DNA of 50,000 nucleotides from Chiloscyllium plagiosum (GCF_004010195.1 NW_025214743.1:1-50000); one strand, 5' to 3'. Shown: positions 2,801-44,202, counted from the first letter of the stretch. Notes: generated by a model not told the origin, from the sequence alone. Numbers and translations are program-made.

Positions 2801-2983
2801 AGTTACAAATTGCACAATATCAGGTTATAGTCCAACAGGTTTATTTGGAAACATTAGCTTTCGGGGATGAAGGAGCAGCACTATGAAAGCTAATGCTTCC
2901 AAATAAACCTGTTCAACTATAACCTGGTGGTGTGATTTTTAAGTTTGTACACCCCAGTCGAACACTGGCTCCTGCACATCATG
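2801..2983 (+). mobile_element. Short fold-back PLE-terminus-like element (family B) with hammerhead remnant
   Basis: 42-bp imperfect inverted repeat 2821-2862 / 2885-2926. Centre reads gatgaaggagcagcactatGAAAGCTA. Flanks gctgatgatct / gctgaggatct are TSD-like. Confidence 0.65.
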
Positions 2984-3093
2984 GCTGAGGATCTCGAAAT
3001 TGTGATCCCTAGTTACTGACACATCAACGTGGAAATGGAATATCCTCCGTTACCCTGTCAAAATTGTTCCTAATTTTGAACACCCCTTAATCC

Positions 3094-3367
3094 TTGTTGT
3101 GGTTCTGTTCGCTGAGCTGGGAATTTATATTGCAGACGTTTCGTCCCCTGTCTAGGAGTGCTTGGGAGCCTCCTGTGAAATTTCCTCTGGCATTTATACC
3201 ACTATAAATGCCGGAGGAAACATCACAGAAGCGCTTCACAGGAGGCTCCCAAGCACTGAGGATGTCACCTAGACAGGGGACGAAACGTCTGCAACACAAA
3301 TTCCCAGCTCGGCGAACAGAACCACAACAACGAGCACCCGAGCTACCAATCTTCTCTCAAACTTTGA
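3094..3367 (+). mobile_element. Fold-back PLE-terminus-like element (family C)
   Basis: Inverted arms 3094-3198 / 3203-3330 around a 4-nt loop, with a 37-nt unpaired tail. TSD accccttaatcc (3082-3093) / acctcttaatcc (3368-3379). Confidence 0.8.
3253..3292 (+). ncRNA. Minimal type I hammerhead ribozyme motif (family C)
   Basis: gca-CTGAGGA-t-GTCaCCT-agac-AGGgGAC-GAAAC-GTC-tgc. All core nucleotides present, stem II, 3-bp stem I, palindromic ACGT stem III. Confidence 0.75.
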
Positions 3368-3544
3368 ACCTCTTAATCCTCTTGGAGCAGAGAGGATTAA
3401 GCCCAATTTATTTTCTCTCTTTCCTTGTTTTTAAAATCCCTCATTCCTGACATCATTCTAGTAAACCTCCCTTGCACATTCTCCAGGGCTTTAATCTGCT
3501 TCCTTAAATAAGGTACCGCAAACTGAACACAATACAAAAAAGGG

Positions 3545-7255: not shown

Positions 7256-7356
7256 AATGTGGTCTAATCATTAATTTGCATAACTTGTTTGCTTTTACAA
7301 CTCCCTTCCTCTATTTATAAGCTACTTTAACAACTGTTTCAACAAAAGAGGATTGC

Positions 7357-7679: not shown

Positions 7680-8300
7680 TTGTGACCACATTCTGAGAAT
7701 TATGCACATGAATCTTGAGGCCCTTCTGTACTCTCCATTAAAGTTGTACGTTTGAGCCTGTAATATCTGTTTCTTTAATCAAAATACATTATCTCACTCA
7801 AATAACTCAGCAGAGGCTGGTGCCTGCATCAGCAAATCACCCCTTATTTACATGTGGAAATTCCTTGACACTGATTCATCTCTCTGAGCGGGATGTGTGA
7901 CACTCCTGTTTCGTTCTGTCAGTCAGGGCTCCTTGACTGGATGTCTAAACCTGGTCTGATCAGGGAACTCCTATTCTATGAGGTCCACCTAGCTGACTTT
8001 GTTACAATCATTACACTGTCATTTCTGTGCATTGAAATTCATCTGCCAGGTATCTGTCCATTTGGCTAACTTGTCAGTGTCTCTGAAATCGCTCCATGCC
8101 AGTCTCACAATTCACTGTTGCTCCTCGCTTAGTATTGCCTGCAAATTCAGAGACTTTGCCCTCAAACCCATCTCCAAATTATGCATATAAATCAGAAAAT
8201 GCAAGGCTCTCAACATCACTTTTAATTTATCTCCAATTGAAGCAAGATCTATCCAGACTTAATTTCTGTTCCTATCTTTTAGCCAATTTCTAATCCATTC

Positions 8301-8424
8301 ATTCCTGATGAACAGCTTATGCTCAAAACATTTACTCTCTTGCATCTCGGATGTTGCCCGACTGGCTGATTCCAGTGCCACACTCTTCAACTCTGGTCTC
8401 CAGCATCTGCAGTCCTCACTTCCT
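8301..8424 (+). mobile_element. PLE terminus fragment (family A), degenerate hammerhead
   Basis: attcctgatgaacagcttatgctcaaaac...ctccagcatctgcagtcctcactt, homologous to 44074-44200. Confidence 0.8.
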
Positions 8425-8454
8425 TCCTTCTAAACCATGCTACTAAAGACCCAT

Positions 8455-8790: not shown

Positions 8791-9310
8791 CCCTGGTTGT
8801 CAGTTCAGAACAGGGGGCTTTGTTTTAAAATCAAGGGTTGCTCTTTCAGGATAGGGATGAGTAATTTTTGAGGTTTCTTGACTGGGCCTGGGGCCCGACA
8901 GGGTTGATAGTTGTAAAGGAAAACCACTACTGAGTCTTAATGAGATGATGCTCATGTTTTATATGTTATGCATTTTATTGCACCTTGGTTATTGGCTACA
9001 AGTTACATTAGCAAGTTTTAGATATTGTTACTAAATATATTGGGAGACACTTGAAGAATGGGTAGGCTGGAGTATGATGCAATCTCTGACAAAACTACTG
9101 TACATGACACAAAACAGACCACACCTAGAATACTGAGAACAAGTTTGGATCCCTTATCTAAAGAAGATAGACTGACATTAGAGGCACTCCAGAAAAAGTT
9201 AACTCGGGGGAATCAGCTGCACAGACTCTCTAATGATGAGAAATTGAGCAGGTTGGCTTCTGTACTCGATGGAGGTCAAAAGATGGGCTACTTTACCCAA
9301 ATATACTTGG

Positions 9311-9507
9311 TTGAAACTTTATTGCTGGAACAGCACAGCAGGTCAGGCAGCATCCAGGGAACAGGAGATTCGACGTTTCAGTCCTGAAGAAGGGCCTGTG
9401 CCCGAAACGTCGAATCTCCTGTTCCCTGGATGCTGCCTGACCTGCTGTGCTGTTCCAGCAATAAAGTTTCAACTTTGATCTCCAGCATCTGCAGACCTCA
9501 CTTTCTC
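9311..9507 (+). mobile_element. Young fold-back PLE-terminus element (family A)
   Basis: Perfect 69-bp inverted repeat 9311-9379 / 9404-9472, ~35-nt tail, perfect TSD cccaaatatacttgg (9296-9310 / 9508-9522). Confidence 0.92.
9382..9414 (+). ncRNA. Minimal type I hammerhead ribozyme motif (family A)
   Basis: CTGAAGA-a-GGGC-ctgt-GCCC-GAAAC-GTC at 9384-9411. Stem I is weak. Confidence 0.7.
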
Positions 9508-10759
9508 CCCAAATATACTTGGGGTGGCTTGATAGAGATGTGCTTCCCCCTTGTGGGAAAGCCTAGCACCAGCGAACATCAATTCAAAGTAAGTGGTTGC
9601 ACAGCCAGGATAGTCATTTTCTCAAACAGTGAATCTGTGAAATTTTGTACCTCTTAGATCTGTCGAGGCTGGTTGTTGAGTATACTCAAGGCTAAGATGA
9701 TCAAATTTTCAATCCAGAGAGAATTGAGGGTTATGTGGAAAAGGCAGGAAATTGGATTTGAGGATCATCAGATCAGCCATGATCTCATTGAATGGTGAAG
9801 CAGATTCAATGGAATGAATTGCCTCATTCTGCTCCTACCACTTATGGTCCTATGACTGTACTTTGTACTTTGTAATTCATTAGGAAAGTCATGTTGTTAA
9901 CCAATAAATCACAACCGTGTAGTCTGGGCTCTAAGTTATAATGTACATTTGTGCATAAATCTTTTGATATTTGCCCTCAATTTAAAATAAACCCTTTCTC
10001 TCTGCATTTTTGCTACTAGATCTGACATAGGCTGAGAGAATACATCACTTAGAGGATTTTTTGTTCCTGACTGGCATTTCTTTTTCCACCCAGCATCTGT
10101 GTAAGTCAAGGCTGGCTGATTGATGGATTACTTTCACTTTGTGCTGGATTTTTGGACAATGAAAGTATTGGATTACATTTCAGAGCTGATATGAGTCTTA
10201 AATGACCCAAATGTAACCACACATCCACCCCCACACCCCATCTAATGAGGGCGCACTTTCATTGTGTAGCACAGATAGAGCAATCTTCGAGGACTAATAT
10301 GTGAATTAACTCTTTGCTGAAGAATACTTTGACAGCATTTGTATTGCTTGGGATAAGCTTCTGTCAACTTTCATTTTATATATGCCAGGCACAGATGTCA
10401 GTCTTTGTGACTAGGATATGGTGGCTCGCTGCACTGAGCATCTAGATGGAAAGTGATAGCAGCCCTGAGTAAATTTGACTTATGCTTGCATTCTGGCCTC
10501 CCTTTATATAACACTGTTGCATTGCAAATCACATTGTCATATTTTGTTTCCTCTTTCTGAATGACCCTGGAGTCTAGAGGGATGGAACATTAATTGCCCG
10601 AACAATGCTACATGCAAAACCTTATGCCTTTGTTCCTTTTCTATGAACAACCCTTAACTCTTGACAAAAATAGAAGAAATACTGTGAAGGAAAGGCTATT
10701 TGACAGGTGGGGACATTGAAGGGTCATATGATGAAATTTCCAGTAATGCATCTGACATT

Positions 10760-16394: not shown

Positions 16395-16821
16395 GGGTAC
16401 AAAGCTTTTTCCTCATGTCTCGCCACTAAACTCCTTCCCCTCACCTTGAGCCAGTGTCTCTCATGACTGACCCTTTAATGAAAGGGAGCAGCTGCTCCTT
16501 ATCCACTCTATCCATGCTCCTCACGACTTTCTTAGATTAGATTAGATTACTTAGATTACTTAGTGTGGAAACAGGCCCTTCGGCCCAACAAGTCCACACC
16601 GCCCGCTGAAGCGCAACCCAGAGAAGACTCTGTGCACTTCAATCAGATCACCTCTCAGTCTTCTCTGCTCTAATGCAAACAGCCCAAACCTATTCAACCT
16701 TGCTTCAAGCTTAAATCTTCCATCCTAAGCAACATCCCACCAAAGCACACAACCTCACGTTTTCCCAAATTTTATTCCTTTTTTCCGTCCACATAATTAA
16801 TCTGTCTAATTCCTCTATAGA

Positions 16822-16944
16822 TGAAGGGGGCTTACGCCTGAACAGTGAGTCTCCTTCTTTTCGGACACTACCTGACCTGCTGTGCTTTGCTAGCGCCACA
16901 CTTTCCGACTCTAACTCTCCAGCATCTGCAATCCTCACTTTCTC
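16822..16944 (+). mobile_element. PLE terminus fragment (family A)
   Basis: Begins inside the hammerhead core (tgaagggggcttacgcc). TSD ctaattcctctataga / ctaattcctccataga (16806-16821 / 16945-16960). Confidence 0.85.
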
Positions 16945-17889
16945 CTAATTCCTCCATAGAGCCTGTTTCATCTCCAACACTTGTTTCCCATCTATTTCTG
17001 TGTCACCTTTCTTAACAGCAGTGAGAGAAGATTCATTCGGACCATTCAGTGGAATTTTTAAAAATGACTGGGAATCTCATTGAAATGTATAAAACTCAAA
17101 CAAGACTAGACAAAATAAATGAGGTGGGTGAGTCTAGAACTAGAAGGCATAGGTTAAGGGTGAGTGGGGAAAGACATAAGAGACCTAAGGGGCAACTTGT
17201 TCATGCAGGGGGTAGTACATGTATGAAATGAGCTGCCAGAGGAAGCGGTGAAGGCTGGTACAATTACAACATTTTAAAAGGCATCTGGATAGGTACATGA
17301 ATAGGAAAGGTTTGGAGGGATATGGGCCAAGTGCTAGCAAATGGGGCTAGATTAAATTAGCATATCTGGTCAGCATGGACGGGTGGACCAAAGAGTCACA
17401 GATGTACAGTATAGAAACAGACCCTATGACTAGGGAGCTCTGAACAAGGAATCACAGTTTAGGGACATGGGTTAGGTTCTTTAGAACTAAGCTAACAAGA
17501 ATTTTTTCACCCAGAGAGTGGTGAGCCTGTGCAATACTCTGCCATAGAAAGTGGTTGATGACAGAACATTGAATATTTTCAAGAAGGTGATAAATATAAT
17601 TCTTTTTAGAGCCAAAGGGATCAATGAGTATGCAGAGAGAACTGGGACTGAGTTAATGTTCAGCCGTTATCATGTTGTATGGCAGAGCAGGCTCAAAGGG
17701 TCAAATGGCCTATTTCTACTTTCTGACAATAAACGTAACTATTGTACATTCAGTTTCCTCTTCCTAGTCACTAACATACAGTAAATAATTGTGGCTGCAG
17801 CACTGATCCCACTGGCACTCCATTAATTAAAGGTTACCATCCTAAAATGTTCCCTCCTCACCTTATAACCAACTAGGCCAATCCTCTGA

Positions 17890-18020
17890 ACCAAAACAAA
17901 GAGCTACCGATGCTGAGATCTGAAACTGATGAAGGCTCGCCAGACTCGATCCATTAACTCTACTTTCTTCCTACAGATGCTACCAGACTGAATTTCTCCA
18001 GCAAATTCTGTTTTTGTGTT
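17890..18020 (+). mobile_element. Old PLE-terminus-like element (family D); other copies at ~23610-23800, ~26175-26402, ~30038-30137
   Basis: Shared ctgatgaagg..gactcgaaac..aactct..tccacagatgct..ctgctgagtttctccagc. The 23610 and 26175 copies are fold-backs. Confidence 0.6.
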
Positions 18021-18205: not shown

Positions 18206-20216
18206 TTACATGTCTTTCCTCTGGGGCTTGGAGTTTTTAAAGTCTGCTCCCTATTCAGGAGACTGCAGCAGCACACAGCGTGCAAGCCCCCACCCCATCC
18301 AACACTGCCCCCCAACACCGCACCCCGCCCCCAACCCCATCCAACATTTTTTTGCCTATTCTGCACAACTGTTAAGGCGATCAGTGCCAGTTTCCGTTTT
18401 TACACAGCAATGTATATGGTGGTATGTACACCCACTTTTCGGGAGGGAATTAGATTTATTTTTGACTTGATGACTGTAAAAGAATGGCAATGTACTTCCA
18501 AACCAAGGTGGTTGTACATCTTGCATGCGCAGGAATCAGTGTTGCCTGTTGCCTTTGGCAATTTAGGTTTTAGCGATCACAGATTTTCAACATGCTTTCT
18601 ATCATGTTTAATGGTCCAATATTTAATCGCTCATCAGGAATTAATTAAATCAGTGGGCTTGTTTTCTCAAAGCAGAAAATGTCTGCTATGAAGCAGATAT
18701 TACAGCAACCAACTACACTTAAACCATTAAAGATATACTCTGTTAAAGGCAAGGTACAACTACAAGGCTTTCAAAGGAGTCCTCAAAACACAGTGCAGAA
18801 ACTTGTTAGCTGTACAAGCTGCCACCACAGTACATAGGTGATGAAGGAGTGAATGTTTAAGGTGGTGGATAGAATGACAATCACAGGCACCCTTTCATAA
18901 TCTGAGAATGTACTTTAATGTTAGTCAAGAAATCAAGAGCACCAGAAGAAACCTTCTGCTCTTCAGTGATTTTTCTTTCTAATGTCTAATTGAAAATGAT
19001 CAAATTAGCCCAAGGCTGATCCCACAGGCAGCACAGCACTCCTTCAATGCTGCAGTAAGCTATAAAATATCAGAATTCCCTTCAAATGTGATAGGGTCTG
19101 GTCCTACCCTTAAGTGATAGATGTAGAACTAGTAACTAAATTAAGTAGAAACCCTGGTCAATCCTTTGTTCCTGTTGGGCCCTGGAGTATCAGTTTGTAT
19201 GTGACTAAGGTTCAGTTCAGCAAACTCGACAAAGATTAGGAATTGAAATGTATTGGAGATCTTCTGGACTGGTTAAAGTTTCTAGTTTAGGAAAGGCAGT
19301 GGCGTAGTGATAATGTCACGGGACTTGCACTCCCACTCTGGGGACATGAGTTCAAATTACGCCCATGCAGATGGCAAAATTTGAATTCAACAAAATGTGC
19401 AATTAAAAGTCCGCTGTAACCATCATTGATTTTTGGAAAAATACAAGGCCTTTCTAAGAAGGAAATCTGCCAAACTTGCCTAGTCTGTTCTACATGAGAC
19501 TCTGGACTCACAATAAATGACTCAAATGCCCCATGGAATGGTCTGGCAAACACTATGGATTGTAAACAAAGGAGAGAAACTGGGCAGCTCTCCTGGTGTG
19601 GGCTTAGCCTTTTGAAACAGCCACGCCTGGTCATTGACTATGTACTGCAACAGATGGATTGGATGACCTAAAAATCATGGAGCAAGAATTCCTTAATTTG
19701 CCTTCATGTTTCTAAAGGCCTAGGGCCAGGGGAATGAAGATTAAACTGGAAAAGTTGGCTATTTAAGTAGAACGGAGCTGATACAGGAAATCCTTTGCCT
19801 CTGTCTCCTTTTCTCCATGCGTTCCCTTTCTGCCAAAGATGCCCATTCCTCCAGAAATGGTTTTCTCGGTCTCGTGCCCTCCCTCACCTTCATTTCCTCT
19901 TTCCCCTGTTGCCACCTACTGCTGAAGACTTGTTACAAGATCACTGCTGCCACCGACTCTGGCGAGGCTGTCCTGCTACTGGGCCATTACGTACCCAGAG
20001 ATGCTGATTTTGGTGTGAGGGACATTGCAACACTGTTTTGTTTAGTCAGACAACACCGTGAGACAGCTGTGACCAGCATTGTCATCCTCCCCCACCCCCA
20101 AACCCCAGATGCAAATGTGGACCTCTGGAAGGTTAACAAATCTGGGTGCATCAATGCTGCTTTGTTTGTAGAAACATTGACAATAGAAGCAGGAGTAGAC
20201 CATTCAACCCTTCAAG

Positions 20217-20353
20217 TGTTTAGGTTAGAGTGGTGCTGGAAAAGCACAGCAGGTCAGGCAGCATCCGAGGATCAGGAAAATTGACGTTTCTGGCAAAAGC
20301 CCTTCATCAGGAATGGAGGCAGGGAGCCTCCAGGGTGGAGAGATAAGTGGGGA
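20217..20353 (-). mobile_element. PLE terminus fragment (family A variant) inserted in a LINE 3' tail (~20175-20670)
   Basis: Perfect 16-bp TSD cattcaacccttcaag (20201-20216 / 20354-20369). Minus strand reads CTGATGAAGGGCTTTTGCCAGAAACGTC. Confidence 0.88.
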
Positions 20354-22837: not shown

Positions 22838-25800
22838 TGAATGCAAACCTCCACCTCCACCTCCACCAAAACCAGGAAGGTTTTGGTTCTGATTCACAGT
22901 ACCTACAGATTCATCTCAAACTAAGATGGAGTTGGCTGGATTAGGGAGAGAAAATAACCAGTGTCCCTACTTAGTGATTGCTATCTGGTGAGCCTCACTG
23001 GCACTACAGTTTGGTGATGAAGTTGACATGATGCTACCTGCAAATGATCAGCACCTGTTTCTAGCTAGCATGTGAAATGTACCTTTTAGGTAAGGTGGCA
23101 GAAATATCCCAATGTAGTTTAAAATGAGTCGATTTGGGACAGCAGGGTAGGAATTTTGTAAAGTAATGGGATACATTGTTTAGTGAATCAATGCTGTGCC
23201 CATTCTGATCTTGAGCTCTGAATAATGGTGATGCTAGAATAGTGAATCTCAGTGTTGTAAAGACTGTCTAATCACCGCATGACACTGGGGCAAGGAAGGG
23301 AATGGGATCCTGTTCTTAGTATCCAGCTAGGAAATGTTTGTGCTGGTCTTTGATGAATGGAGGGTGAGGCATGAGGCAGAGGTAGCTGGGGAGGAAATTG
23401 GTCCAAAAGGAAATAAAGATTATTAAGGAAAGCGTCAATTATTATGTTGTAACTGTGTAATTAGATTAACAGGGCATTTTGCCTAGTTGCAGTAGGATGT
23501 TTCTTGAGGCCAATTAGGAAGGTCGCTTCAGATTTATTGTGCATGATGTGCAGTGCCTCATGTTTACCAATCGCAGTGTTGAAAGAAAGCGATCAGCTGG
23601 TTCATAAACAAAAACTAAAGATCTGCAGATACTGGAAATCTGAAACAAAAATCAAAATTACTGGAGAAACTGAAGTTCTGGCAGGATCTGTGGAGACCAA
23701 GCAGAGTGAACATTTGAAGGGTTAATGGGCCTGAAATTTTGACTCTGCGGTTTCTCCACAGATGCTCAGTCCTGCTGAGTTTCTCCCAGCTATTTGTGTT
23801 TGAGCTGGTTCACAATGGTTTTCCCAATGCTGATATAATAGACACCCCTTACCCCCAATCCTTCCCCCAATTGGTCATGAAAACCAATTGAGGCAAGACA
23901 CACCTGGAAGTCTCCTCACTGACCCTCTTAAGTTCATCCATTTCTGATCTAGGAAACTAATTCCTTGATCACTTTCCTCTAAGTTTGTGTCCACAGTCTA
24001 CAAATAATGTTATGAAAAATACCTTGCCCATTGTTTAACTACATATCTGAGAGGATTTTTATACCAGAGAGCTGCCAATTAAGAGGAGTGTAATCCCAGC
24101 ATGAACTAATGTCATGAGGGAAGAAGTGATGGCAGTAATTGCATAAACAAATGAAAACACAAATCATTCTATTGCTCCTCTTAGCTGTGAGATTTTAAAA
24201 ACAAAACATGAATGGGCAACAACATTATTTCCATGTTGAGCAGAATTCTGATCTGACTGAAGATTGGAAATGATCAAAAGACAAGGGTGTTGATACCTCT
24301 GACCGTAGAAGGGGAGTTACTGGATGTCAAGTAGGACAGCTGGCAGTGAGTTACAAAGTAGGAATTCTATGATGTAACTCTGCCTTCATAAAAACAGACA
24401 CTGAAGATTGAATTACTGCCTTGGGTTATCCACCAGCTGGATAATTGGTGTGAAGCCCAATAGTTAGTTCATAGCCTCCAGTTTGCTTGTTTTTTTGGAC
24501 AGCAGGTAAACAGAATGCAGCTGGAAGCAAAATAGTGCTAATGGATTGGCGATGAATCCAATGCTGACTTAAACTGATTTTGACCTGTGCTGTGTAATAT
24601 TTCTTTGTTTTTGTTAACTATAACAAGTGCCATAAACTGAATTGCTAGAGAATTTTCAGGTTCCTTTTAACCATTGGAAATTTTCACTCCAGATGTCTGC
24701 CTCACCATTGTTATCGTCGTCCTTGCTCTGTTGCTTTTGGGTGGTACACCAGTTTGTGTGGTCAAGTTCTTTTGAAACCATCCTGAGATGCCCTGGGTAC
24801 AGGTACTAATGATCCTTATTGATGGAAGTCTAAGTTACTGAAACTGGGGGAAGAATGTCCATACACTGTCTTCAGTCGAAGAGAAGTTTAATCTCAATCA
24901 ACCATAAAGTTTAATTGCGAAGTTGTAATGGAAATAGATACTGAATACTGAAGTTATATCTTGTGAGGTATCAGGCTGAACTTGAATAAGCATGCATTAC
25001 TCCTTTAGCACTAGCTTAGCACAAGAACAACTGGATGGTCATTAAAGCTCCATTTAAACCTGGTTAGCACCTCTAATGAGCAGTCCCTTATATCCTGACA
25101 GGTAGAACTTATCTTGTGATGAATAAACCCTTTCAGGTATGAGCCGTTTGCTACAACATTGTCTGTGAGAGAAATCGGTGAGAGAAGGCTTTTGTTAGAC
25201 CATCTATAACCTTTGTTCTATATAGTTGCTCAGGCCTGTCATTTCATAGCATAATAATTTTTTTTAATCGTGAAGATCTTCCAATATAAATCTAAGATCG
25301 TAAGAAAGATCAGACAGACTGGGGCTGTTTTCCTTGAAGCAGAGGACGTTGAGAGGAGAGATGTTTCTGACTCTATAAAGTTGAGGGACTTAGACAGGAA
25401 GAGACTTCTCCCCTTGATGGGGAGATCAATGACCTGGGGATGTAGATTTAAGGTAAGCAACAGGTGGTGCAGACAGGATGTGGGGAAATGTTTTCATCCG
25501 GACAGTGGTGGGAATCTGTAACTTACCTGTCAGTTGGGATTGGCAGAAACCTTCAATGTTTTAATATGTTGATATGCAGTGATGTTGTCAAGGCATTGCC
25601 TTGTGCTGGAAAATGGAATTAGTATTGTTTAGTTGGTTTTGACTGGCACAGATGTAATGGGCCTAAGGGCCTGTTTTCTTTCTGAGCTTCTACACCTCTG
25701 TGCACCTGTCTTAGAATCTATACCTTGCTCTTGTGCTCTCCTTTCTATTTGTCACTCTGGATTGGCTTTTATGGCGTCTTGGGATAGATTGGCCACTCGA

Positions 25801-27861
25801 GGCTTTGCCCTGTCACTATTGGGTTGTGGTGGGAGAAACCTGCAGCATGTTTGTACCCTGGTATAGTTTGCTGGAGCAGCTAGTGGCCAGTTAAGGGGAG
25901 GGGTTCTTATCAAAAAAGGGTCTCCTGAGTCCATCGAAGGGCCGCTTGGCCTATCTGCCCTAGGCAGAGCCTCCAAGACCATCTACCCGAAGGCTTGGCT
26001 CCACAATTAGAGCGAGAGGGGGATTGGCCATTTGATTGTTTGTTTGAAAGTTCTCCGAGGTGGGACTTCCTCCCCAGATTTGGTGACAAGATGTGAGGTC
26101 ACTGTCAGGTGTCCCACCAGTGGGTGGAACGGTGGTCAGACAGATGACCCTGATTGTCACCAGCAACGCAAACACCCGGAGGAAACTGGATGTAAAATAT
26201 TGAAGGAGCTGAACTAAAAGCAGGAGAGGCTGGAAATGTGCCAGGTCTGGCAGCGTCTGTGGAGTGACATGTAGAGTTGCCATTCTCGGTCAATGACCTT
26301 TTTTATCAGAAGGTCACAGGCTTGAAACTTTAACTCTGTTGGTGTTTCTCCACAGATAACAACTCACCAGCTGAGCCTGAAAGTACAACATTTTCTGTTT
26401 TGATTCGAAGAACTGTTATAATGGGTTCTGACACGTATAGTGCTGCGCTTGTCTTTCTTTCTCTCTTGCTCTCAATCTCAATCACCACACGCACACTTTT
26501 ATCTATGCAAAGTAAATTTGACATTCTACCTGATCATGTAGGCTTCCTGACCCATCAACTCAGGGTTAAAGTTAAGCCCCATGTCTCTTTGTACCTGAAA
26601 GAACTCAACAATCCGACTGCAGCCTGGTGACATCTGGATTAAATAAATGTGGGGAGTCTGCAGGGAGGAGATTAGTGCAGTCATATTTTCACAAGGTCGC
26701 CAAGTATTCTTGGAAGGAAAGAAACAAAAATGTACTGTTTCATTCTAATTGAGTGAGTGTTTGATGGTGTTTTGTATGGGAGCACCCCACAAAATGAGCG
26801 AAGAAACATCTGGAACAGTTTTGATGTTTGTCTCTGGCTGTCATATTCCCTAAACTTGGTTTCTCGTTTCCTGTCTGCTTTTTGCCTCCTCAACAACAAG
26901 AGATAATTAATTAATTCTTTGGGCTGTGCCTCTTGCAGACAAATGTTTTGTTACCGATATGGGTTTTGTCAGTTGAGGGGCTGGCTGTAAATCTGATCTT
27001 GTTCCCTCACCAAGTGTCCACCCCCATACCACGTACATTGGATAGTGAGCAGAGTGTTTATCCAGTTTTAGACGCCCTTCTGAGAGAATGAAGCCAGGGC
27101 TGTATTGTTTGAGATCGCAGAATAGAATGTGAACCTTTTCATTGGTTTCAACAGGCAAAACCTAGAGGTAACATGATTGAATTGAATCTGTACTGAACCT
27201 CACCTCGAACACATTGGAGATCGATGCAGAGTTCTCATCTCCATGTCATGATAAAGGATGTAGAGAAAATGCATACATTTAAAAGAAGCAATGTAATTAT
27301 CAAGAAAGGGCTGGGCAGACTGGGACTTGTCTCTAGCATTAGGGAAGCTGAAGGATGACTTAATGGGAAGACTTAATTTTTATTCGGTAGCATTATTTAT
27401 GTTATTTCCATTTGTGGAAATATCATCAAAAAGTAGCAATCATGAATAGATTCTTACAAATAGAACCAGTCAGGAATTCAGAAGGAACATCCTTACCCAG
27501 AAAGGGATAAGAACGTGGAGTAGTGATGGTGAATGGCATAAATGAATCTTTGAGGAAGCTGGAGATCAGCTAATAAAGGCAGCAGTTGTGGTAGATTAGT
27601 TGATGGTTGGATAGAAAGGGAGGTTATATGAGGATCTTCTGGAGCATTGACCAATTGAGTCAAATTGTGTTATGTCAATTTGAATTTTTTCTTTTTGTTT
27701 TGATGAGGTTGACAGGAGAGAAACTATTTCCCTGAAATCAGTAATGGGTAGGCATGAATTCAAAATCATTCAAAGAATAAAGGAAGATATTTACAAAATT
27801 ATATAGTACAGTTGGAAGGCCAATCAGTTTGTCATGACTGTGCCAATTCTTTTGAAAGGGT

Positions 27862-30550
27862 CATAGAGTCCTACAGATTGTAGACAGGCCCTTTGGCCCA
27901 AACTGGTCCATGCTGACCAAAATGTCCATCCACGCTAACCCCATTTCCCTGCACTTGGCCCATATCCTTCTAAACCTTTCCTATCCATGTATTTGTCCAA
28001 AAGCTTTTTAAACACTGTTATTGGACCAACGCCAACTACTTCTGCTGGCAGTTCATTTCATATGCTTACCACCATCTGTGTAAATAATGTTGCCCCTGAG
28101 GTTCCCTTTTATTCTTTCCCATTTAACATTAAACTGATGCCCTCTAGTCCTCGACTCCCCAACCCTGGGAAAAAGATTTAGTGCATTCACCCTTCCCATT
28201 GTTATGAAGGTGGAGGTGTGTACTGTGCCTTTAAGAGAGTTGAAAAGCTGTCAAGGACTGATTGAAAGCACAGAGTGTCCTGAACAAAGTAAAAATGTAA
28301 CACTTGGTCGAAACAAGTAGCTGGAATTGTGTTGCAATGGATCAAAAACAAATTCAAATTCAGCCAATCGGTTTAAATTTTGCCCCAAGATACCAAACTC
28401 CAATTGAATTTGAAATATAATATTTTTGATGACATCAAAACCAATGAAATGATCCATTGATTTGGGGTATAAAACCAGACATTTTGAACAGTTAGGGGAA
28501 GAACTGCCAAGCGCCAACAAGTATAGATTGCTGGATGAATAGCTGTCTGAAAGGTACCTGTTAATATGGAAGATGTGTGGAGCAGAATACTGAAGAAAAG
28601 ACGACCGAGGAAAATCTGCAGGGAAGATACAAGAAGAGGATTTGACAGCTCGCTAGTTTTGAAAGTTGAATTTTTTTTTTGTAAATCTAATTCGGGGGTT
28701 TTATCAGACAGGTATTGTAGAGTAGGAGGTAAAAGATAAGTTTGAGAAAGGAGTTGTAAATAGTTGTTTAATGTTCTCTTTTGGACTTAAAGAATAAAAT
28801 TGTTAATTTTTACTTTAATGACCTCTGGAATAGTTCTTTGCCTCTCCAAAATTTAACAGATTACTGCATGAGGTAAGCTTCTCTGTGTTGGATTTAAATT
28901 AGCAGAGGAGTTTACCCAGTGTCATAACACCATGCCTTTCATGATCCTATACACTTCCATAAGATAACCTCATCAGTCTCCTACACTTGAAAGAAAAATG
29001 TCCCAGCTTGTCTAACCTCTCCCAATAACTCAGTCCCTTGAGTCCTGGCAACATCCTTGTAAATTTCTTCTGCGCGCTTTCTAGTTTAATAACATCCTTC
29101 CTATAGCAAGGTGACAAAAACTGAACACTGTACTCTGTGTGGCCTCACCAACTTCCCAACTTCAATACTCAATGCTCTGACTGATGAAGGCTGGTGTGTC
29201 AAATGCTTTCTTCACTTCCCTGTCTACCTGTGACTCCACTTTCAGAGAACCGTGCACCTGAACTCTCAAAGTCCCTTTTATTCCACTGCACTCCTTAAGG
29301 CTCTACCATTCACCATGAAATTCCTACCTTGATTTGACTTTCCAAAATGCAAAATCTCTCACTTATTTCTATTAAACTCCATTTGCCATTTCTCAGCCCA
29401 CTTCCCCAGCTGATCAAGATCCTGCTGCAATTTCTGACAACCTTTCTGTGTCCACAATACCAACTATTTTCGTGTCACCTGCAAACTTACTAATCATGCC
29501 TTGTACATTCTCATCCAAATCATTGATACAGATAATAAACAGTAATGAGCCCAGCACCAACCCCTGAGGCACTCCACTAGTCACAGGCCTCCAGTCCAAC
29601 AAGCATCCTTTCACTGTTACCCTCTGCTTCCTACCATCAAACAAATTGTGTATCTAATTTGCCAACTTGCTCTGGATTCCATGTAACCTAACCTTCCAGA
29701 GTAGCCTACCATGTGGAACCTTATCAAACGCCTTACTGAAATCCATATAGACCATGTCTACCGCCCTACCCTTATCAACCTTCCTGGTCACTTCATCAAA
29801 GAACTCTAACAAATTTGTGAGACATGATCTCCCATGCACAAAGCCCATGCTGACTACGTCCAATCAAATCCTGTCTTTCCAAATGCATGTATATCTTGTC
29901 CATCAGAATCTTCTCAATAACTCACCTACCACAGAGGCTTACTGGTCTACAGTTCCCAGGTTTTTCTTTGCAACTCTTCTTGAATAATGGCATAACATTC
30001 ATTATCCTCCAGTCTTCCAGGAACTTTCCATGGGCTTTGACAAAGGGTCAGTTAGACTCGAAACATCAGTTCTTTTCTCTCCTTACACATGCTGCCAGAT
30101 CTGCTGAGATTTTACAGCATTTTCTCTTTTGGTTCCAGGAACTTACCCTTCGCTAACAATGATGCGAAAGTATCAGCTAGGCCCCTGCAATTTCTTCTCT
30201 AGCCTCTTGGATATATTTGGTCAGGGCCAGCAGATTTATCCACCTTCGTACATTCTAATATGTCCAACATCACCTCTACTTTGATATGAACTGTCTCCAA
30301 GATATGACCACTAACTTCATGTCTTTCTCCACGGTAAACACCAGGGAGAAATATTCATTGATGACCTCCCCCATCTCCTGTGGTTCTACACATACATGTC
30401 CAATTGGGTCCTTGAGGGGCCCTATTCTCTCTCCAGCTATTCTTTTTTCTTTGAATATACTTGAAGAACCTCTTTGGATTCATCCTAATCTTCTCAGCCA
30501 AGGCTAACTCATGACCCCTTTTCTCCCTCCTGATTTCACTCTTCAGTAAA
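27862..30550 (-). mobile_element. CR1-like LINE ORF2/3' fragment interrupted by a solo LTR and a family D insert
   Basis: GFVHGRSCLTNLLEFF..VYMDFSKAFDKVPH (29654-29863) and GVPQGLVLG..SKFAGDTK (29414-29644). Confidence 0.92.
28200..28929 (+). mobile_element. Solo LTR, 730 bp (Gypsy- or ERV-type)
   Basis: Termini tgttatga...tcataaca, 4-bp TSD ccat (28196-28199 / 28930-28933). CCAAT at 28364 and 28441, TATAAAA at 28468, AATAAA at 28793. Host LINE is contiguous once it is removed. Confidence 0.88.
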
Positions 30551-32120: not shown

Positions 32121-32431
32121 CATAGAATCCCAACAGTGTGGAAACAGGCTCTTTGGCCCAACAAGCCCACATTGACCCTCCGAAGAGCAATCCACACAGG
32201 CCCATTCCCTACCCTACTACTCTACATTTACCCCTGACTAATGCACCTAACCCACACATCCCTGGACACAATGGGCAATTTAGCATGGCCCATTCATCTA
32301 ACCTGCACATCTTTGGATTGTGGGAGGAAACCGGAGCACCCGGAGGAAACCCACGCAGACACGGGGAGAATATGCAAACTCCACACAGTCACCCAAGGTT
32401 GAAATCGAACCTAGGTCCTTGATGCTGTGAG
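32121..32431 (-). mobile_element. HE1-like SINE, head truncated
   Basis: Homologous to 22483-22837. Confidence 0.88.
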
Positions 32432-33314: not shown

Positions 33315-33542
33315 TCGAAGAGTGTGGTGCTGGAAAAGCTCAGCTGGTCAAGCAGCATCCAAGAAGCAGGAGAGTCGACATTTCAAGCATAAGCCCTTCA
33401 TCAAGAAGCCTCATTCCTGTTGAAGCGCTAATGCTCGAAACGTTGATTCCCCTGCTCCACGGATGCTGTCTGACCAGCTGTACTTTTCCAGCACCACACT
33501 CTTCGACTCTGATCTCCAGCATCCGCAGTCCTCACTTTTTCC
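33315..33542 (+). mobile_element. Fold-back PLE-terminus element (family A)
   Basis: Inverted arms ~33313-33405 / ~33415-33509, with a tail. TSD tccttgctattgacag / tccttgctcttgacag (33299-33314 / 33543-33558). Confidence 0.88.
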
Positions 33543-33616
33543 TCCTTGCTCTTGACAGGCGATTGTAGAGAAAACTGCAGGGAGTGATTTGTTTCCCATG
33601 TGCTACAGGTTTTCAC

Positions 33617-36419: not shown

Positions 36420-39095
36420 TGACTGGTGTCCCTGTTCGATATCGGGCAATCGTTAACACTACAACCAGGACTCTTTGTTCAGATCAATCCCAGTGAGGCA
36501 AAAAATAACAAGCGGACAAATTAATTTTTAACTCCTCACCACCATTCTGGGAGAAAGTCACAAGTTGCTGTTTTATTTACTAGTAAGGCAGCACATTCTC
36601 AGAAAAAACAACTTTAAACATCGCTATTATTTTCCTATATTGTATTTCTAAAGTACTGTTAAAGTGCCAGCATACGAATATTGTGCTCGTGTAAACCATT
36701 ACATTTAACAACCTGCGCTGTGGAAACAAGCCAAAATATCTATGTATAAAGCCACTAACAAATTACCCTTTTTTTGCACCTCCAGTTTTGTATCAAGAGC
36801 CACATACAATGCGGCTGCAATACATAACCTTTTTAAAATGTCATTATTAATTAATGCTTTTAATTTGCTTTCTGCACTTGGACCAGTTGTATCCCAAAAA
36901 ATTGTATGACCATGCATATTTACCAAAAATAGACCTCTGGTTCAAGGGAAGCATGTACTGTCAGCTGTGATACTTAATGATGCAGACCTGATCAAAGGAC
37001 CAAGGTTTCTTTACAGAATCCAGGCTGAGAGAATTATAAGCACCAAGAACAGTCACTAGATGACCCTCCTTTGGTCCATTTACACAACAAAGGAGGGGTA
37101 ATATCAACTTCCTCTGATAAATATACTTTTAAACCCCACGTTAAGTGCACTTATATCAATATATTGTGAAGATACAAAGTTTTAAGTATTTCTGAGATGT
37201 CCTACAGATGATATTTTAGAAAATAAAGCTTTCATTGCTCACTAACTCATTGTGTGAAGAACAGCCATTTAACCCAGACAGACTTATGGGTAAAGATTCA
37301 TTTGGAGAAAACTGACATTTCAGGAGAGTCGAGAGTGTGGTGCTGGAAAGACACATCAGGTCAGGTAGCATCTGAGGAATGGGAGAATCGACATTTCGGG
37401 CATAAGCCCTTCATTAGGAATTATTCCTGATGCCAAAACTGTTGATTCGTCTGCACCTCAGATGCTGCCTGACCTCCTGTGTCTTTCCAGCATCGCACTC
37501 TCGACTCTAATCTCCAGCACCTGCAGTCCTCACTTTCTCCTTTTTAAAGGAGAAAGGAGGAATGGACTACCCTCTGACCTCTCGTGTGCTCTTAAAACTT
37601 ATTATAATGACAGAATCGTTGTTTGGTAATGTAGAGCTTGTGTATTGCTTTAGAAAAAGAAACCTGCTGTCATTGTCTTGTGATTCTGTCCTCACAGGTG
37701 CAAGAACGCCAAATCTCAAATCAAACAACAATTCATATTGCTTTGAGATGTCCTTTGAGATTTTTGTATTCTTGCAATTCTGTCCTGATAAAGTGCAAGA
37801 CAAAAACTTTTGACAACAGGTCCTTTATTTCCGGAAATGAGAAAATACTAAAATAAAATCACTACTGAAGTCTGGCAATGATTCACAATGAAGTAAGTGA
37901 GTCTATAAGTGATGTGTTTTTACTTTTTTTTGTGTGTTACATGTAGACTTGATATATAATAGAATGACTTTATGTTCCTGGGTGTGTGTTAGATGTGCAC
38001 TGAATTGTTCCTTTATTCCTGAAATAATGCGTTAGTGTGCAAGTGCCTCAACATTAGATAAGTGAAGTCTTATTTTTCAGTTTTTTAAAAAAAAATACTG
38101 CATAAGTGTTTTTAAGGCTTGGATTTCTATTACAATTTTTAACATTTTACTGTGAGTCCTTGTGCCCTTTCTTATTGCGTTGTGAAAAAATGAAGGATGT
38201 TAGATTTTTTAAACGATTTTATATGTAATTATATTTCCACCTCTGGGTTGATATGCTAGATTATCTTCCTAGAGGAGTAATCACAATGCACTCTCCTCCC
38301 TTCCCCCTCCACCCCCAAACCACCCTGCCAAATCAAACAGCTCTTTCTCTTGTCTCCTTGGTAGATGAAAGTGCTTAAGGACAATGACTTTCTTCCTGAT
38401 TTTTCTACTGTGTTGCTTACCTCAATGTCTGGGAGATTAAGTTTCAATTTTTGGCGATTTCCAGAACAGTACAGGAGGATCAGAACTCTTCAAACCCATT
38501 GCCCATGACTGATCCTTGCAATGTTCCTTGATACATAGCAATCCTTGTGTGAAAAATAGACATCTAATCTAATTCTTCACTTCCTGTCTCTCTCACTTTC
38601 CTGAGAGAGATCTTTTGAAAGCCAAAGCATTGAAATCTCCGACTCTGATGCACCCCTCTGTATAAACAAGTTGCAAAGCCAAAACTAAATACCTGGCTGT
38701 GAATTTTGAAATTTAGTTTTTTTTTGTGTGAAGTGATTATTGTTTACCAACAAAAGCTTCCCATCAGGAATAAGGTCAGCTGTTTTGTTTCCTCTTCTCA
38801 CTTATTAAAAAGAAATCCAGCTGCTGCTAGATGACAGCTGGACAACTGTGAGCCTGTGCAGTAGAGGATGTGTGCACACGTTAATATTAAAGATATGACT
38901 TCTGTTTCTCAACCACTAGTAGTGAGCCTAGAGCCCATTCCTTAAGTATATATCCTCAACAGTAATCATATAATGCAATAAATGTAAAGTTTATTTCAAA
39001 CTAGTACCATTTTATATGAGACAATAAACCTGTCATAAATCTGAATTTCTGATTTTTAATCACAGTTATTAATAAACTGGCGTTTGGCTCCATTT
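36420..39095 (+). other. Probable GYPC 3'UTR
   Basis: AT-rich, largely transposon-poor stretch after the stop codon, ending at an AATAAA cluster. Earlier AATAAA at 37222 and 37852 could give shorter isoforms. Confidence 0.55.
37325..37540 (+). mobile_element. Fold-back PLE-terminus element (family A) within the probable GYPC 3'UTR
   Basis: agagtcgagagtgtggtgctggaaagacaca... pairs with ...tgtgtctttccagcatcgcactctcgactct, followed by the family tail. Confidence 0.85.
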
Positions 39096-39110: not shown

Positions 39111-40499
39111 GATAGTTGAGTAGAAAATGAATCTTCATTTATGTAGCAGCTTACATGACATTCCCATGGGTTTTACAGCCAATATTTGTTATTCATTCAC
39201 AAACTGTTGGTTTTGCTGGCAAGGGCTAGTGTTTATAGCTAATCCCTACTTGACCAAGAGAAGGCAGTGTGCTCTCTTGCATACACCATAATGGTTTGGA
39301 CGATTTCACAAATTAACCACATGTCTACAGTTCGAGGTACATATAGGTTAAAAGATAAACTTGCCATAGTCCCAGATGACTGTAGAGCTAGTTTTATGTG
39401 ACAGTGAGACCAGTTGGAGGGTCACCATATCTAAGACAAGGAGTGTGGTTGCAAAGATGGACCGCGGCCATGCTGTGGTGTCACTCTGCATCACAGCCAA
39501 CTTGATCTAACTGCCACCCACACACGTTACTTAGGGCAAAGACAGCAGATTTCCTTCTATTTTAGAAGAAGGATATGAATTAGATTCATATCCATGATTG
39601 TTTTTGATTGTGACTAAGGCCATTTCTCCCTTCCAAATTGGTTTGATGAACTGAATTGAAATAGCACCAGCTATGATTCAATTGAACTCTGGCTCAGGAC
39701 TATTAGTTCAGTCGCTCTTAATTGGCAAATTCCTGAATCCTGTCACCCGCTGATGATCTCACATATGATCTTGGATATCTTATTGAATTTACTGTCATCA
39801 ATCCTCCTGGCTAGTATTTGGCCAACATACTGTTATCTATTGGAGAAGGATCGGCAGACCTAGGCTCAATCTTGCTGAAGCAGCAATTGGGGTTACTGAA
39901 TATTACTTAATAGCCAGTTATTCCATCAGATACATGTTTTTCTCTTGAAACATGGGGCTTAGCTCCCATCCACCGCCACCAACCTCATAGTCCCACTACC
40001 CCGCACCGCCCGTTTGTATCTCCTGCCCAAAATCCACAAACCTGACTGCCCCGGCCGACCCATTGTCTCAGCCTGCTCCTGCCCCACCGAACTCATCTCT
40101 GCGTACCTCGACACGGTCCTGTCCACCTTAATCCAAGAACTCACCACCTACGTTCGGGACACCACCTACGCCCTCCACCTCCTCCATGATTTTCGCTTCC
40201 CTGGTCCCCAACGCCTTATCTTCACCATGGACATCCAGTCCCTGTACACCTCCATCCCCCATCACAAAGGACTTGAAGTCCTCCGCTTCTTCCTTTCCTG
40301 CTGTCCCAACCAGTACCCTTCTACTGACACCCTCCTTTGACTGACTGAACTGGTCCTCACCCTGAACAACTTCTCTTTCCAATCCTCCCACTTCCTCCAA
40401 ACGAAAGGAGTAGCCATAGGCACCCGCATGGGCCCCAGCTATGCCTGCCTCTTCATAGGATATGTGGAACAGTCCATCTTCCGCAGCTACACTGGCACC

Positions 40500-41467
40500 N
40501 NNNNNNNNNNNNNNNNNNNNNNNNNNNNNNNNNNNNNNNNNNNNNNNNNNNNNNNNNNNNNNNNNNNNNNNNNNNNNNNNNNNNNNNNNNNNNNNNNNNN
40601 NNNNNNNNNNNNNNNNNNNNNNNNNNNNNNNNNNNNNNNNNNNNNNNNNNNNNNNNNNNNNNNNNNNNNNNNNNNNNNNNNNNNNNNNNNNNNNNNNNNN
40701 NNNNNNNNNNNNNNNNNNNNNNNNNNNNNNNNNNNNNNNNNNNNNNNNNNNNNNNNNNNNNNNNNNNNNNNNNNNNNNNNNNNNNNNNNNNNNNNNNNNN
40801 NNNNNNNNNNNNNNNNNNNNNNNNNNNNNNNNNNNNNNNNNNNNNNNNNNNNNNNNNNNNNNNNNNNNNNNNNNNNNNNNNNNNNNNNNNNNNNNNNNNN
40901 NNNNNNNNNNNNNNNNNNNNNNNNNNNNNNNNNNNNNNNNNNNNNNNNNNNNNNNNNNNNNNNNNNNNNNNNNNNNNNNNNNNNNNNNNNNNNNNNNNNN
41001 NNNNNNNNNNNNNNNNNNNNNNNNNNNNNNNNNNNNNNNNNNNNNNNNNNNNNNNNNNNNNNNNNNNNNNNNNNNNNNNNNNNNNNNNNNNNNNNNNNNN
41101 NNNNNNNNNNNNNNNNNNNNNNNNNNNNNNNNNNNNNNNNNNNNNNNNNNNNNNNNNNNNNNNNNNNNNNNNNNNNNNNNNNNNNNNNNNNNNNNNNNNN
41201 NNNNNNNNNNNNNNNNNNNNNNNNNNNNNNNNNNNNNNNNNNNNNNNNNNNNNNNNNNNNNNNNNNNNNNNNNNNNNNNNNNNNNNNNNNNNNNNNNNNN
41301 NNNNNNNNNNNNNNNNNNNNNNNNNNNNNNNNNNNNNNNNNNNNNNNNNNNNNNNNNNNNNNNNNNNNNNNNNNNNNNNNNNNNNNNNNNNNNNNNNNNN
41401 NNNNNNNNNNNNNNNNNNNNNNNNNNNNNNNNNNNNNNNNNNNNNNNNNNNNNNNNNNNNNNNNNNN
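40500..41467. other. Assembly gap (968 N)
   Basis: Run of N. Confidence 1.
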
Positions 41468-41580
41468 TCTGGCCTATCACCCTCACCTTGACCTCCTTCC
41501 ACCTATTGCATTTCCAATGCCCCTCCCCCAAGTCCCTCCTCCCTACCTTTTATCTTAGCCTGCTGGACACACTTTCCTCA

Positions 41581-41614
41581 TTCCTGAAGACGGGCTTATG
41601 CCCGAAACGTCGAT
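41581..41614 (+). ncRNA. Minimal type I hammerhead ribozyme motif (family A)
   Basis: CTGAAGA-c-GGGC-ttat-GCCC-GAAAC-GTC at 41584-41611. Confidence 0.7.
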
Positions 41615-42564
41615 TCTCCTGTTCCCTGGATGCTGCCTGACCTGCTGTGCTTTTCCAGCAACACATTTTCAGCTTAGCTTAATAGTACATTTGCATTTCA
41701 ATTGCTAGAACATTTTTACCGTATTAACTGCAAGCGCAGAGGTAGAATTGGTTCAGACACAGATGCACCTGTCTAGTTAGTGCCTGCCAGGAACAGTTCT
41801 TCAAATCCTGAGGGTCAAGCTGATCTTGTAATGTCTGTTCCAAAAACCTTGCCTTGTAATCTTATTTGTTACGCAAAAGAAATAAAGAAACCATGCTATG
41901 CATTTATATCTTGAAATTAGCAATGACTTGACTCATATAAAGTTTCAACCTGTTGCCCAATGCTATCCATGATTGAAACTCCTATCCAGAGAAGATATAC
42001 TCCTCACTCAGCTCTTTTAAGTTTTGAAATAAACAAATTTCTCGTGAAACTCTAGAGTCTGGTGACATTTGTGACAAGCAAAAGAAGTTTTGTTTGAAAC
42101 TGACTTCAAGTTTCTTTCTGTCTCAAGATGTATAGACATTGTTGAGACTCCTCGCCAAACTTGATGGCCAAAACCTTTCATGTGTGAAAACTCTTGGTTT
42201 GGGAACATCACAAGCTAGAGGAAAACACTGCCATTGTTGTGACTTGTATCTACTGAACTGAATCAAAAAGTGCGAGGAATGAAACAGAAATGTACTTTCA
42301 AACTCCACTCTCGATTTTTCTCAATTGCTTTTTGGATTATCTTCTTTGAAGTCAGAACTCAAAGTAATGGCTCAATGCATATTCCGAGATTATCCTATGT
42401 CAAGAATTATAAAGATTGATTCCATTTACACTCCAGGGATTCTCTCCAGACCCTGACGAAGTTTGTATGTATTTTTGAAACTGATACCGTTAGGTCACTT
42501 TTCAGGAATGAATTTCTTACCTTTCATAAAAAAAAATCGCAACACTAATCCATTGAATTTGTTG

Positions 42565-43025
42565 TATGCCTTTCTTCCCACTTATTAAAATATATTCAGT
42601 GGCCTGTCCTCCATTGCTTTTATGTCAGACAGAATTTCACAGATATGCCACTCTCTCCTTGCTCTTCATCTCAGTCCTAAATGGTCTACCCTGTAGCCTG
42701 AGATTATGGCCCATCTTTATAGAACCGCCTGCCAGTGGGAATACCATCCTGGATCCATCTGCATCCAGTTATGTCACAATTTTATATTTCAATGAGTTTC
42801 TCTCTCATTCTTTTGAACCACACTGAATACAGGCCTAACTGACAGAATTTCTCATCAAACGACAAACCTTCTATCCAGGAATTAGTCTGGTGAACCTTCA
42901 CTGAACTCTGTCTTTGGCAAATATATCTCCTATTAAGTGAGGAGCGCAAAACTATATGCAATACTGCATGTGTGGTCTCTGGATAGAAGGTTTGTCGTTC
43001 TAGTAGGATGCCGCAAGACATTCCT
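42565..43025 (-). mobile_element. CR1-like LINE 3' fragment
   Basis: Reverse-complement similarity to 35400-35850. Confidence 0.7.
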
Positions 43026-43503
43026 CCACTTGGGTAGAGGATATGTGATAGGTACCTAGAACAGCTAAATTCCAAATATGCTTCCGTATTAAACATTATA
43101 ACATTATTGGTTAAGGTTAATTTGTGTGAACCAAATGTATTACAAAACCAATAGGCAAACAAGGTCCAAATATGAGTAGGCAATTTATCCCTTCGAGCCC
43201 ATACCACAATTTTACATCATCATGGCTGATCTTCTCCCAAGCTTATCCAATTAATCTCTATTGATTTGGCTAAAGCAGATATGAGGTGAGGCAGTAGTAG
43301 CACAATAACTTTCCACACATCCCCTTCAGGTGAGGCACTGTTTACTGCTAATAGCACTTAACTACCCCACTCCAAAGCCCAAGGCCAACGTCTTTGAGAC
43401 AGGCGTTCAAATCTTAACATGGCAGTTGGTGAAATTTGAGTCCAATAAAAGCTGGAATAGAGAGCCAGTCTATTGACGATCATGAAACCATTATAGTTAA
43501 AAA

Positions 43504-44202
43504 GAGCTGGAAATGTGTTGCTGGAAAAGCGCAGCAGGTCAGGCAGCATCCAGGGAACAGGAGAATCGACGTTTCGGGCATAAGCCCTTCTTCAGGAATG
43601 GGGAAAGTTTGTCCAGCAGGCTAAGATAAAAGGTAGGGAGGAGGGACTTGGGAGAGGGGCGTCGGAAATGTGATAGGTGGAAAGAGGTCAAAGTGAGGGT
43701 GATAGGTCAGACTGGGGTGGGGACGGAGAGGTNNNNNNNNNNNNNNNNNNNNNNNNNNNNNNNNNNNNNNAAATGTGTTGCTGGAAAAGCGCAGCAGGTC
43801 AGGCAGCATCCAGGGAACAGGAGAATCGACGTTTCGGGCATAAGCCCTTCTTCAGGAATGAGGGAAGCTTTCCTAACCTGCACTGCCTTCCTAACCTGCG
43901 AATTCAGCACCGCCTTCCTAACCTGAGATCTTCTTCCCGACCTCTCCGCCCCCACCCCAGTCTGACCTATCACCCTCACCTTGACCTCTTTCAACCTATC
44001 ACATTTCCAATGCCCCTCTCCCAAGTCCCTCCTCCCTAACTTTTATCTTAGCCTGCTGGACAAACTTTCCCCATTCCTGAAGAAGGGCTTATGCCCGAAA
44101 CGTCCATTCTCCTGTTCCCTGGATGCTGCCTGACCTGCTGCGCTTTTCCAGCAACACATTTCCAGCTCTGATCTCCAGCATCTGCAGACCTCACTTTCTA
44201 CT
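43504..44202. mobile_element. Young inverted-repeat PLE terminus insertion (family A) with three hammerhead cores and a 38-N gap (43733-43770)
   Basis: Perfect 16-bp TSD ccattatagttaaaaa (43488-43503 / 44203-44218). Cores at 43568-43595 (-), 43828-43855 (-) and 44077-44104 (+). Interrupts a SINE. Confidence 0.88.

Follow-up and report, generated by a model that had tools for sequence, protein, structure and literature searches.

What are the short inserts carrying hammerhead ribozyme cores in this 50,000-nt stretch of Chiloscyllium plagiosum DNA (analysed whole, and hereafter called the window), and why do many of them begin only a few nucleotides before the core? The sequence-only reading had described them as several unrelated families that could form a distinct class of non-autonomous retroelements. 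Our analysis points, with good confidence, to another identity: the inserts are target-site duplication (TSD)-flanked, 5'-truncated, often head-to-head 3' ends of at least three protein-coding Penelope-like elements (PLEs).

A descriptor scan confirmed that hammerhead cores with differing stem II sequences are present in the window, where the complete motif CTGANGA-N-stem II-GAAA-NN-TH occurs six times, in family C at 3256 and in family A at 9384, 41584, 44077, 43595-43568(-) and 43855-43828(-). Intact cores in the window are limited to these six, spread over five insertion events, and in the copy at 44077 the first stem I pair is broken by a base change. The decayed family A copies proposed earlier are likewise present, at 8305, ~16821, 20310(-), 33.3-33.5 kb and 37.3-37.5 kb. 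The family B remnant (2866-2892) and the family D copy (30037-30067) both exist, but with altered cores, B having lost C3-U4 and D having changed C3 and G8. A profile built from 72 natural A/D-type ends gave 17 matches in the window, D at 30038 among them (E=8.6e-10); together with B and C, the window holds 21 pieces. Counting one insertion per TSD-bounded event, these represent 14 insertion events, in agreement with the earlier figure of about 14 inserts. The 14 take in three further D-like remnants recovered by the profile search, namely decayed termini at 17925..18010 (a weak match, E=4e-4), 23716..23793 (E=3e-8) and 26218..26303(-) (E=7e-5).

Two fixed 3' ends, ~35 nt apart, were found in every family, distinguishing tailed from untailed copies. 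TSDs were recognisable in 10 of the 11 window events examined, the event at 37325 being unclear and the RT copy having only 8 nt. With positions on the plus strand unless marked (-), the family B insert (2801..2981) joins an untailed inverted arm, 2801-2862(-), to a tailed direct arm, 2866-2981, which opens with the core remnant, and is flanked by an imperfect 13-nt TSD. The family C insert (3091..3366) is built similarly, with an inverted arm at 3091-3179(-), a tailed direct arm at 3192-3366 and an imperfect TSD, and contains the intact core at 3256-3289. A palindromic family A insert with a CTGT loop (9310..9508) combines an untailed arm, 9310-9379(-), with a tailed arm, 9378-9508, an intact core at 9384-9411 and an exact 15-nt TSD. 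Two old family A pairs are also head-to-head: 33319..33547 (untailed 33319-33407(-), tailed 33409-33547; TSD-flanked) and 37325..37542 (untailed 37325-37421(-), tailed 37427-37542). In the inverted family A insert at 43503..44207, which contains an N gap and is bounded by a 16-nt TSD, the untailed arm 43503-43732(-) holds the core at 43595-43568, and the tailed direct arm, running to 44207, holds the core at 44077-44104. An extra piece of this insert, 43771-43870(-) with its core at 43855-43828, adjoins a gap of 38 N and could be a duplicate created by the assembly.

The remaining copies are stumps, apart from one longer element. Of the family A stumps, an old, tailed one at 8298..8432 starts a few nucleotides before C3 (8305) and has a decayed core, another old one at 16821..16946 is truncated at the core and TSD-flanked, and one with a TTTT loop at 20215..20351(-) has its core at 20310-20283 with the closing pair of stem II broken and is also TSD-flanked. 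The TSD-flanked family D stump (30032..30135) starts ~5 nt before its decayed core at 30037-30067. The longer element is a 5'-truncated, putatively Neptune-type PLE (39963..41675) comprising an RT fragment (39963-40499) with one stop at 40338-40340, a 968-N gap, an intact core at 41584-41611 and an untailed 3' end.

The suggestion of a very high copy number held genome-wide, where the descriptor matched 166,395 cores, compared with 289 in the reversed control. Nine stretches from seven contigs, 1.06 Mb in all, gave 117 matches, against 2 in the same sequence reversed. The core count is far above chance, and chance is excluded. Exact patterns for the family A subfamilies gave 28,555 matches for A1, 15,140 for A5 and 11,888 for A2; family C gave 12,054 and family B 19,898, showing intact B cores elsewhere in the genome, where D-type copies are old and variable.

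The proposal that family A forms the terminus of an RT-coding PLE was supported. The RT piece in the window returned 28,796 first-look candidates in the genome, and at one locus (L072) an open frame of 749 aa that includes RVT_1 (E=1e-8), a CX4CX2C linker and GIY-YIG (E=3e-4) ends 175 nt before a family A core. Families B and C have comparable neighbours. One family B copy has a same-strand blastx match to residues 95-812 of a PLE protein (E=1e-61), and at L119 a GIY-YIG end (E=7e-14) lies upstream of the B core; in family C, GIY-YIG (E=7e-8) lies directly upstream of the core, and at L087 an RT (E=7e-20) lies upstream of the core across an N gap. The B and C proteins share only about 30-44% identity with the A-like set. 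The nearest named homologs of the family A protein come from cartilaginous fishes. Family C, with an ATG position like that of PAc, the Poseidon element of Anolis carolinensis, is putatively of the Poseidon type. The CX4CX2C linker would make family A Neptune-type, a CX2-5CxxC linker between RT and EN being a Neptune mark common to Nematis (Craig et al. 2021, PMC8557442). Family D was not unrelated to the others as had been supposed: its 3' part is shared with A (84% over 31 nt; the A/D profile match given above), so that the families fall into three lineages and the notion of four unrelated ones is rejected, D being an older relative of A by sequence comparison. A complete pLTR-ORF-pLTR copy was not recovered, most long copies holding N gaps; the upstream walk toward a complete element was ended by N gaps and by a 72-nt coding minisatellite.

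These findings bear on the alternative of non-autonomous families, SINE- or retrozyme-like, in which the short inserts are transcribed from short masters and mobilised in trans by PLE proteins. This arrangement would explain many copies of 90-130 nt with a near-fixed 5' edge at the hammerhead; four loci share one common junction, short head-to-tail tandems with two hammerheads exist, and PLE-derived tandem retrozymes are described in vertebrates, one chondrichthyan included (bioRxiv 10.64898/2026.07.22.740005). Against a distinct class, PLE coding sequence for RT and/or GIY-YIG is found upstream of each of A, B and C, and the 5' ends and head-to-head junctions differ copy by copy, which fits de novo truncation rather than amplification from a short master. 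Junctions vary across 49 family A pairs, and the single recurrent one occurs in A1, A2 and A5, so it arose independently in these three subfamilies. Nothing pointed to a master lineage of their own with fixed ends or a fixed junction, and short and long coding copies carry the same subfamily-diagnostic loops. A search of 94 sampled A copies turned up no shared continuation beyond the tail, although the Anolis enzyme requires RNA that extends past its start site. The copies are dispersed rather than arrayed in tandem; in the window they are single or head-to-head, arrays with a hammerhead in each unit are absent, and elsewhere in the genome tandems are only occasional and of two units. We therefore regard short non-autonomous masters as improbable.

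The motif itself appears to be, as had been claimed, a PLE-type minimal type I hammerhead with palindromic stem III, a model supported in families A, B and C. Their haplotypes keep the core CUGANGA...GAAA...UH with one base between 9 and 10.1, and each of the 12 common haplotypes has a palindrome in the four bases from 15.1 to 16.1. Stem II, closed by G10.1-C11.1, has 4 bp in A, 5 bp in B and 6 bp with one mismatch in C, a pairing result biased by the inclusion of stem II in the descriptor. The stem I pairs and 15.2-16.2 were positions that the descriptor did not require, and there the covariation check found compensatory changes between families in the pairs of both stems I and III, sustaining the view that structure was kept while sequence changed. 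Stem I measures 2-4 bp in the 12 common haplotypes, with double changes between A, B and C: pair 1 is G-C in A (48/63) and B (9/13) and U-A in C (9/9), and pair 2 is A-U in A (57/63), U-A in B (11/13) and G-C in C (9/9). Similarly, families A and C have C-G at 15.2-16.2, where B has G-C (13/13). Departures within family A are mostly CpG decay.

Could the motif have ceased to be a working ribozyme and be kept as a protein-binding or promoter element? The inserted copies derive from uncleaved RNA, stem I is short, and the active fold lies above the predicted minimum. In five natural 54-mers, folding allowed the hammerhead dimer to be drawn but never as the minimum-energy state (half-dimer energies of -11 to -18 versus -24 to -31 kcal/mol). 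An Rfam scan returned five matches at E<=10, with the hammerhead family absent among them, and eight of nine Xenopus dimers assayed did not cleave (bioRxiv 10.64898/2026.07.22.740005). Conversely, the core bases, G10.1-C11.1, the palindromic stem III and the NUH triplet have been kept, the compensatory changes extend across proteins only about 30% identical, and the equivalent Anolis motif cleaves with its protein present (Frangieh et al. 2024, PMC11167929). Loss of ribozyme function thus seems unlikely to us, and the hammerheads are predicted to work only as a dimer.

The anatomy of the insertions suggested how such ends might be produced. Exact TSDs of at least 9 nt (9-17 nt) flanked 29/52 A1, 20/29 A2, 8/30 A5, 8/30 B and 13/30 C copies, compared with swapped-flank controls of 2, 1, 1, 0 and 0, respectively. 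In the sample, head-to-head pairs contained 90 of 249 family A pieces, 24 of 49 in B and 6 of 28 in C. These pairs nearly always joined one tailed and one untailed arm (45/49 in A, 12/13 in B, 3/4 in C), in contrast to the 53:50 ratio of tailed to untailed among unpaired A copies (binomial p=4e-10). The tailed end carries no sequence beyond the tail in stumps. A guessed tail-to-ATG pattern yielded no common continuation among the matches listed (100 of 448), and a later pattern found one. Copies running past the tail reach an ATG at +162, and the frame beginning there gives a weak alignment (E=0.91) that reaches residue 1 of one full-length homolog; the family A ORF thus likely starts ~160 nt downstream of the core. 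Four of the six copies that extend past the tail into the ORF start begin at ~0 to -4, and three of those four then carry a second tandem unit.

By analogy with the Anolis PLE, the element protein would nick both target strands and reverse transcription would start internally on uncleaved RNA, at two sites ~60 and ~100 nt past the cleavage site. If the short site served one strand and the long site its partner, inverted pairs of one tailed and one untailed arm would result, with the products primed from both target strands joining head-to-head. In family A, both start sites would fall inside the 5' leader, the ORF starting near +162, so the enzyme would copy only 90-130 nt. Copying would then probably run off the RNA 5' end just before the hammerhead. 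Long copies could come from read-through tandem RNAs, and the second tandem units from the enzyme jumping templates at 0 to -4. Stumps lacking sequence beyond the tail are likely dead ends.

In the first 100 A1 copies among the matches listed, anchored 3' of the cleavage site and with 5' ends read by eye, 52 ended at 0 to -6 before C3 and none at -7 to -18; 17 were long, 22 ended at +1 to +12, 5 at +20 to +27 and 4 at +28. A script applied to 30 of the same loci placed 17 at 0 to -6, none at -7 to -18 and 5 as long. When sets were anchored on the core, ends lay within 9 nt in 59/81 A1 and A2 copies, 10/30 A5 copies and 0/30 C copies; family B showed a broader pile-up (14/30 within 14 nt), and a looser count in a random sample gave 24/95 at -1 to -5. 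The four copies at +28 had suggested a peak at the cleavage site, which was rejected: 5' ends at that position numbered 144 among roughly 35,000 anchors genome-wide, ~0.9% after pattern correction, with many junction artefacts, a value close to the ~0.6% per base at neighbouring positions, the latter taken only from the matches listed. Cleaved RNA is therefore rarely copied.

RNA evidence came from the reads of one run (X19); 0 reads of a second (X20) aligned. The X19 reads lose alignment at 44073, equivalent to -4, where depth rises ~5-fold, and showed no position at which many molecules begin or end. They come from read-through of many genomic copies and repeat the genomic 5' pattern. At -4, A1, A2 and A5 share a hexamer that we take to be initiator-like, and that is absent in B and C. 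Several other origins of the edge were rejected. A splice acceptor does not fit, with AG at -27 (A1) and -17 (A5) rather than -4 and no common upstream exon; sequence inspection showed that the bases upstream of -5 are unable to form stem III for hammerhead cleavage there; and the spacing of a DPE-like match to the Drosophila Penelope promoter does not fit. In the D. virilis element, an internal promoter lies further 5' of the hammerhead (Schostak 2008).

In family A, the pile-up likely marks the start of the element RNA. A competing account concerns the run-off step alone and leaves the inserts as truncated PLEs: ends would accumulate before C3 through stalling, caused by structure or by a protein bound on the pyrimidine tract, or through capture by ATT microhomology. 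Pausing on the pyrimidine-rich stretch immediately upstream would pile up ends in the same way, and a block would be compatible with the 17 of the 100 listed copies that read through and then seldom end close by. The first 1-3 bases of the element are often shared with the TSD end, and ATT is where the Anolis enzyme cuts (Frangieh et al. 2024, PMC11167929). Capture has difficulty with the 11 of 34 non-inverted A1 copies that end at 0 to -3 without a full ATT, and with a second ATT at +29 to +31 that attracts ~1% of ends; template jumps at this point in the tandems would fit an RNA end better than a pause. Between run-off and stalling at the upstream pyrimidine tract we judge the chances about even, and stalling or capture taken together falls just short of an even chance.

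The run-off reading can be extended to a fuller proposal, which we put forward tentatively and hold to be somewhat less probable than not. The Neptune-type transcript would start ~4 nt before the core, making the hundreds of thousands of stumps a fossil map of the RNA and the ribozyme the opening 30 nt of the mRNA; cleavage would decap the transcript instead of making templates, and priming by both nicked strands, at two sites on a single uncleaved RNA, would yield strong-stop-like cDNAs and tailed-plus-untailed palindromes. Were the pile-up to mark where transcription begins, the ribozyme would make more sense as a 5'-leader switch than as a tool for making templates; failing that, the finding amounts to an annotation of shark PLE termini. 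The shark genome constitutes a very large natural archive of PLE integrations and supplies three countable constraints, namely that templates were almost never cleaved at the hammerhead, that 5' ends concentrate at the hammerhead's 5' edge and that inverted pairs use the two start sites asymmetrically. The pile-up makes the RNA start and the role of the ribozyme testable.

The novelty of the families as such is low, because multi-family minimal hammerheads (min-HHRs) on truncated PLEs are already in print: metazoan PLEs have many divergent families per genome, mostly on truncated elements (Cervera & de la Peña 2014, PMC4209133), and truncation and inverted pLTRs are standard for PLEs (Goubert 2022). 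Our literature searches returned nothing on shark PLE hammerheads or on a 5' pile-up; the families may already be named in Dfam or Repbase, or listed in the bioRxiv supplements. In the Cervera & de la Peña supplement file searched, no shark term occurs (PMC4209133). What is added here is the 5' pile-up before C3, the rarity of cleavage-site ends and the tailed/untailed asymmetry of inverted pairs.

The shark motifs share with the min-HHRs of Cervera & de la Peña the core, the extra base between 9 and 10.1, G10.1-C11.1 and the palindromic 15.2-16.2, as well as multiple families per genome, single motifs and opposite-strand pairs 100-700 bp apart (PMC4209133). They differ in number, with 166,395 strict cores in the shark against 2,000-9,000 per genome, and in stem length, Schistosoma min-HHRs having a stem II of 7-8 bp and a stem I of 4-5 bp, whereas family A has 4 bp and 2-4 bp (PMC4209133). 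Non-LTR retrozymes are likewise pLTR-derived and non-coding with a type I hammerhead, and include one chondrichthyan, but they are tandem repeats with a hammerhead in each unit, unlike the dispersed monomers and inverted pairs of the window (bioRxiv 10.64898/2026.07.22.740005). In PAc, the tail corresponds to the stretch between two internal start sites, extension takes place on both strands, and the RNA that serves as template is uncleaved (Frangieh et al. 2024, PMC11167929). The shark families resemble it in their two 3' ends and ~35-nt tail and, on our interpretation, in the extension of both strands from an uncleaved template, and family C also has its ATG at the start of stem II. Unlike PAc, family A is Neptune-type by its linker, with an ORF that apparently starts ~160 nt after the core, and its 5' pile-up at the hammerhead edge does not appear in the part of the PAc account consulted (PMC11167929). 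Finally, EN+ PLEs likewise carry an inverted 5' copy joined head-to-head, a tail of 30-40 nt on one side only and a TSD of ~8-16 bp (Arkhipova et al. 2013, PMC3846280; Craig et al. 2021, PMC8557442); where those papers propose self-priming or endonuclease resolution, the asymmetry has here been counted (45/49) and is read as probable two-site priming.

The cleavage triplets of two of the Penelope-like element (PLE) terminal families carrying predicted minimal hammerheads departed from GUC, being CUA in family B and, in 18 of 26 family C copies, representing the common C haplotypes, GUU. In family C, an ATG overlaps A9-N-G10.1, and the stop codon of the upstream ORF falls within stem II. A fifth hammerhead family, E, accounted for 6 of the 117 descriptor matches in the random genome sample (e.g., in the C1a, C2, C12, and C16 stretches), with a layout related to that of family C and stem I and stem II sequences of its own. 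The same sample contained additional small A/D-like families with stem II regions of 11–16 nt.

Many other dispersed repeats were found in the window (1151–1329, 6987–7251, 7430–7682, 17162–17584, 22502–22837, 32135–32460, and 34772–35809), and these seven stretches look like candidate LINE 3' ends and SINEs. A 197-nt direct tandem duplication with 99% identity, at window 16001–16394, is possibly an assembly duplicate.

Elsewhere in the genome, the proline-rich N-terminal region of the family A ORF has given rise to a 72-nt tandem repeat, which formed arrays of at least 20 units at G000:C15:4034399-4036230 (loci L241 and L247–L250) and was also present at C1:42154220-42154467. This repeat is a minisatellite that arose within a PLE coding region. 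The family A terminus, specifically the segment just downstream of the cleavage site, made up an approximately 47-nt tandem repeat at G000:C16:42817618-42818021.

Natural head-to-tail units with two hammerheads, spaced approximately 200–280 nt apart, were observed at loci L362, L363, and L377, where the predicted ribozymes could form dimers in cis. These units also resemble retrozyme precursors.
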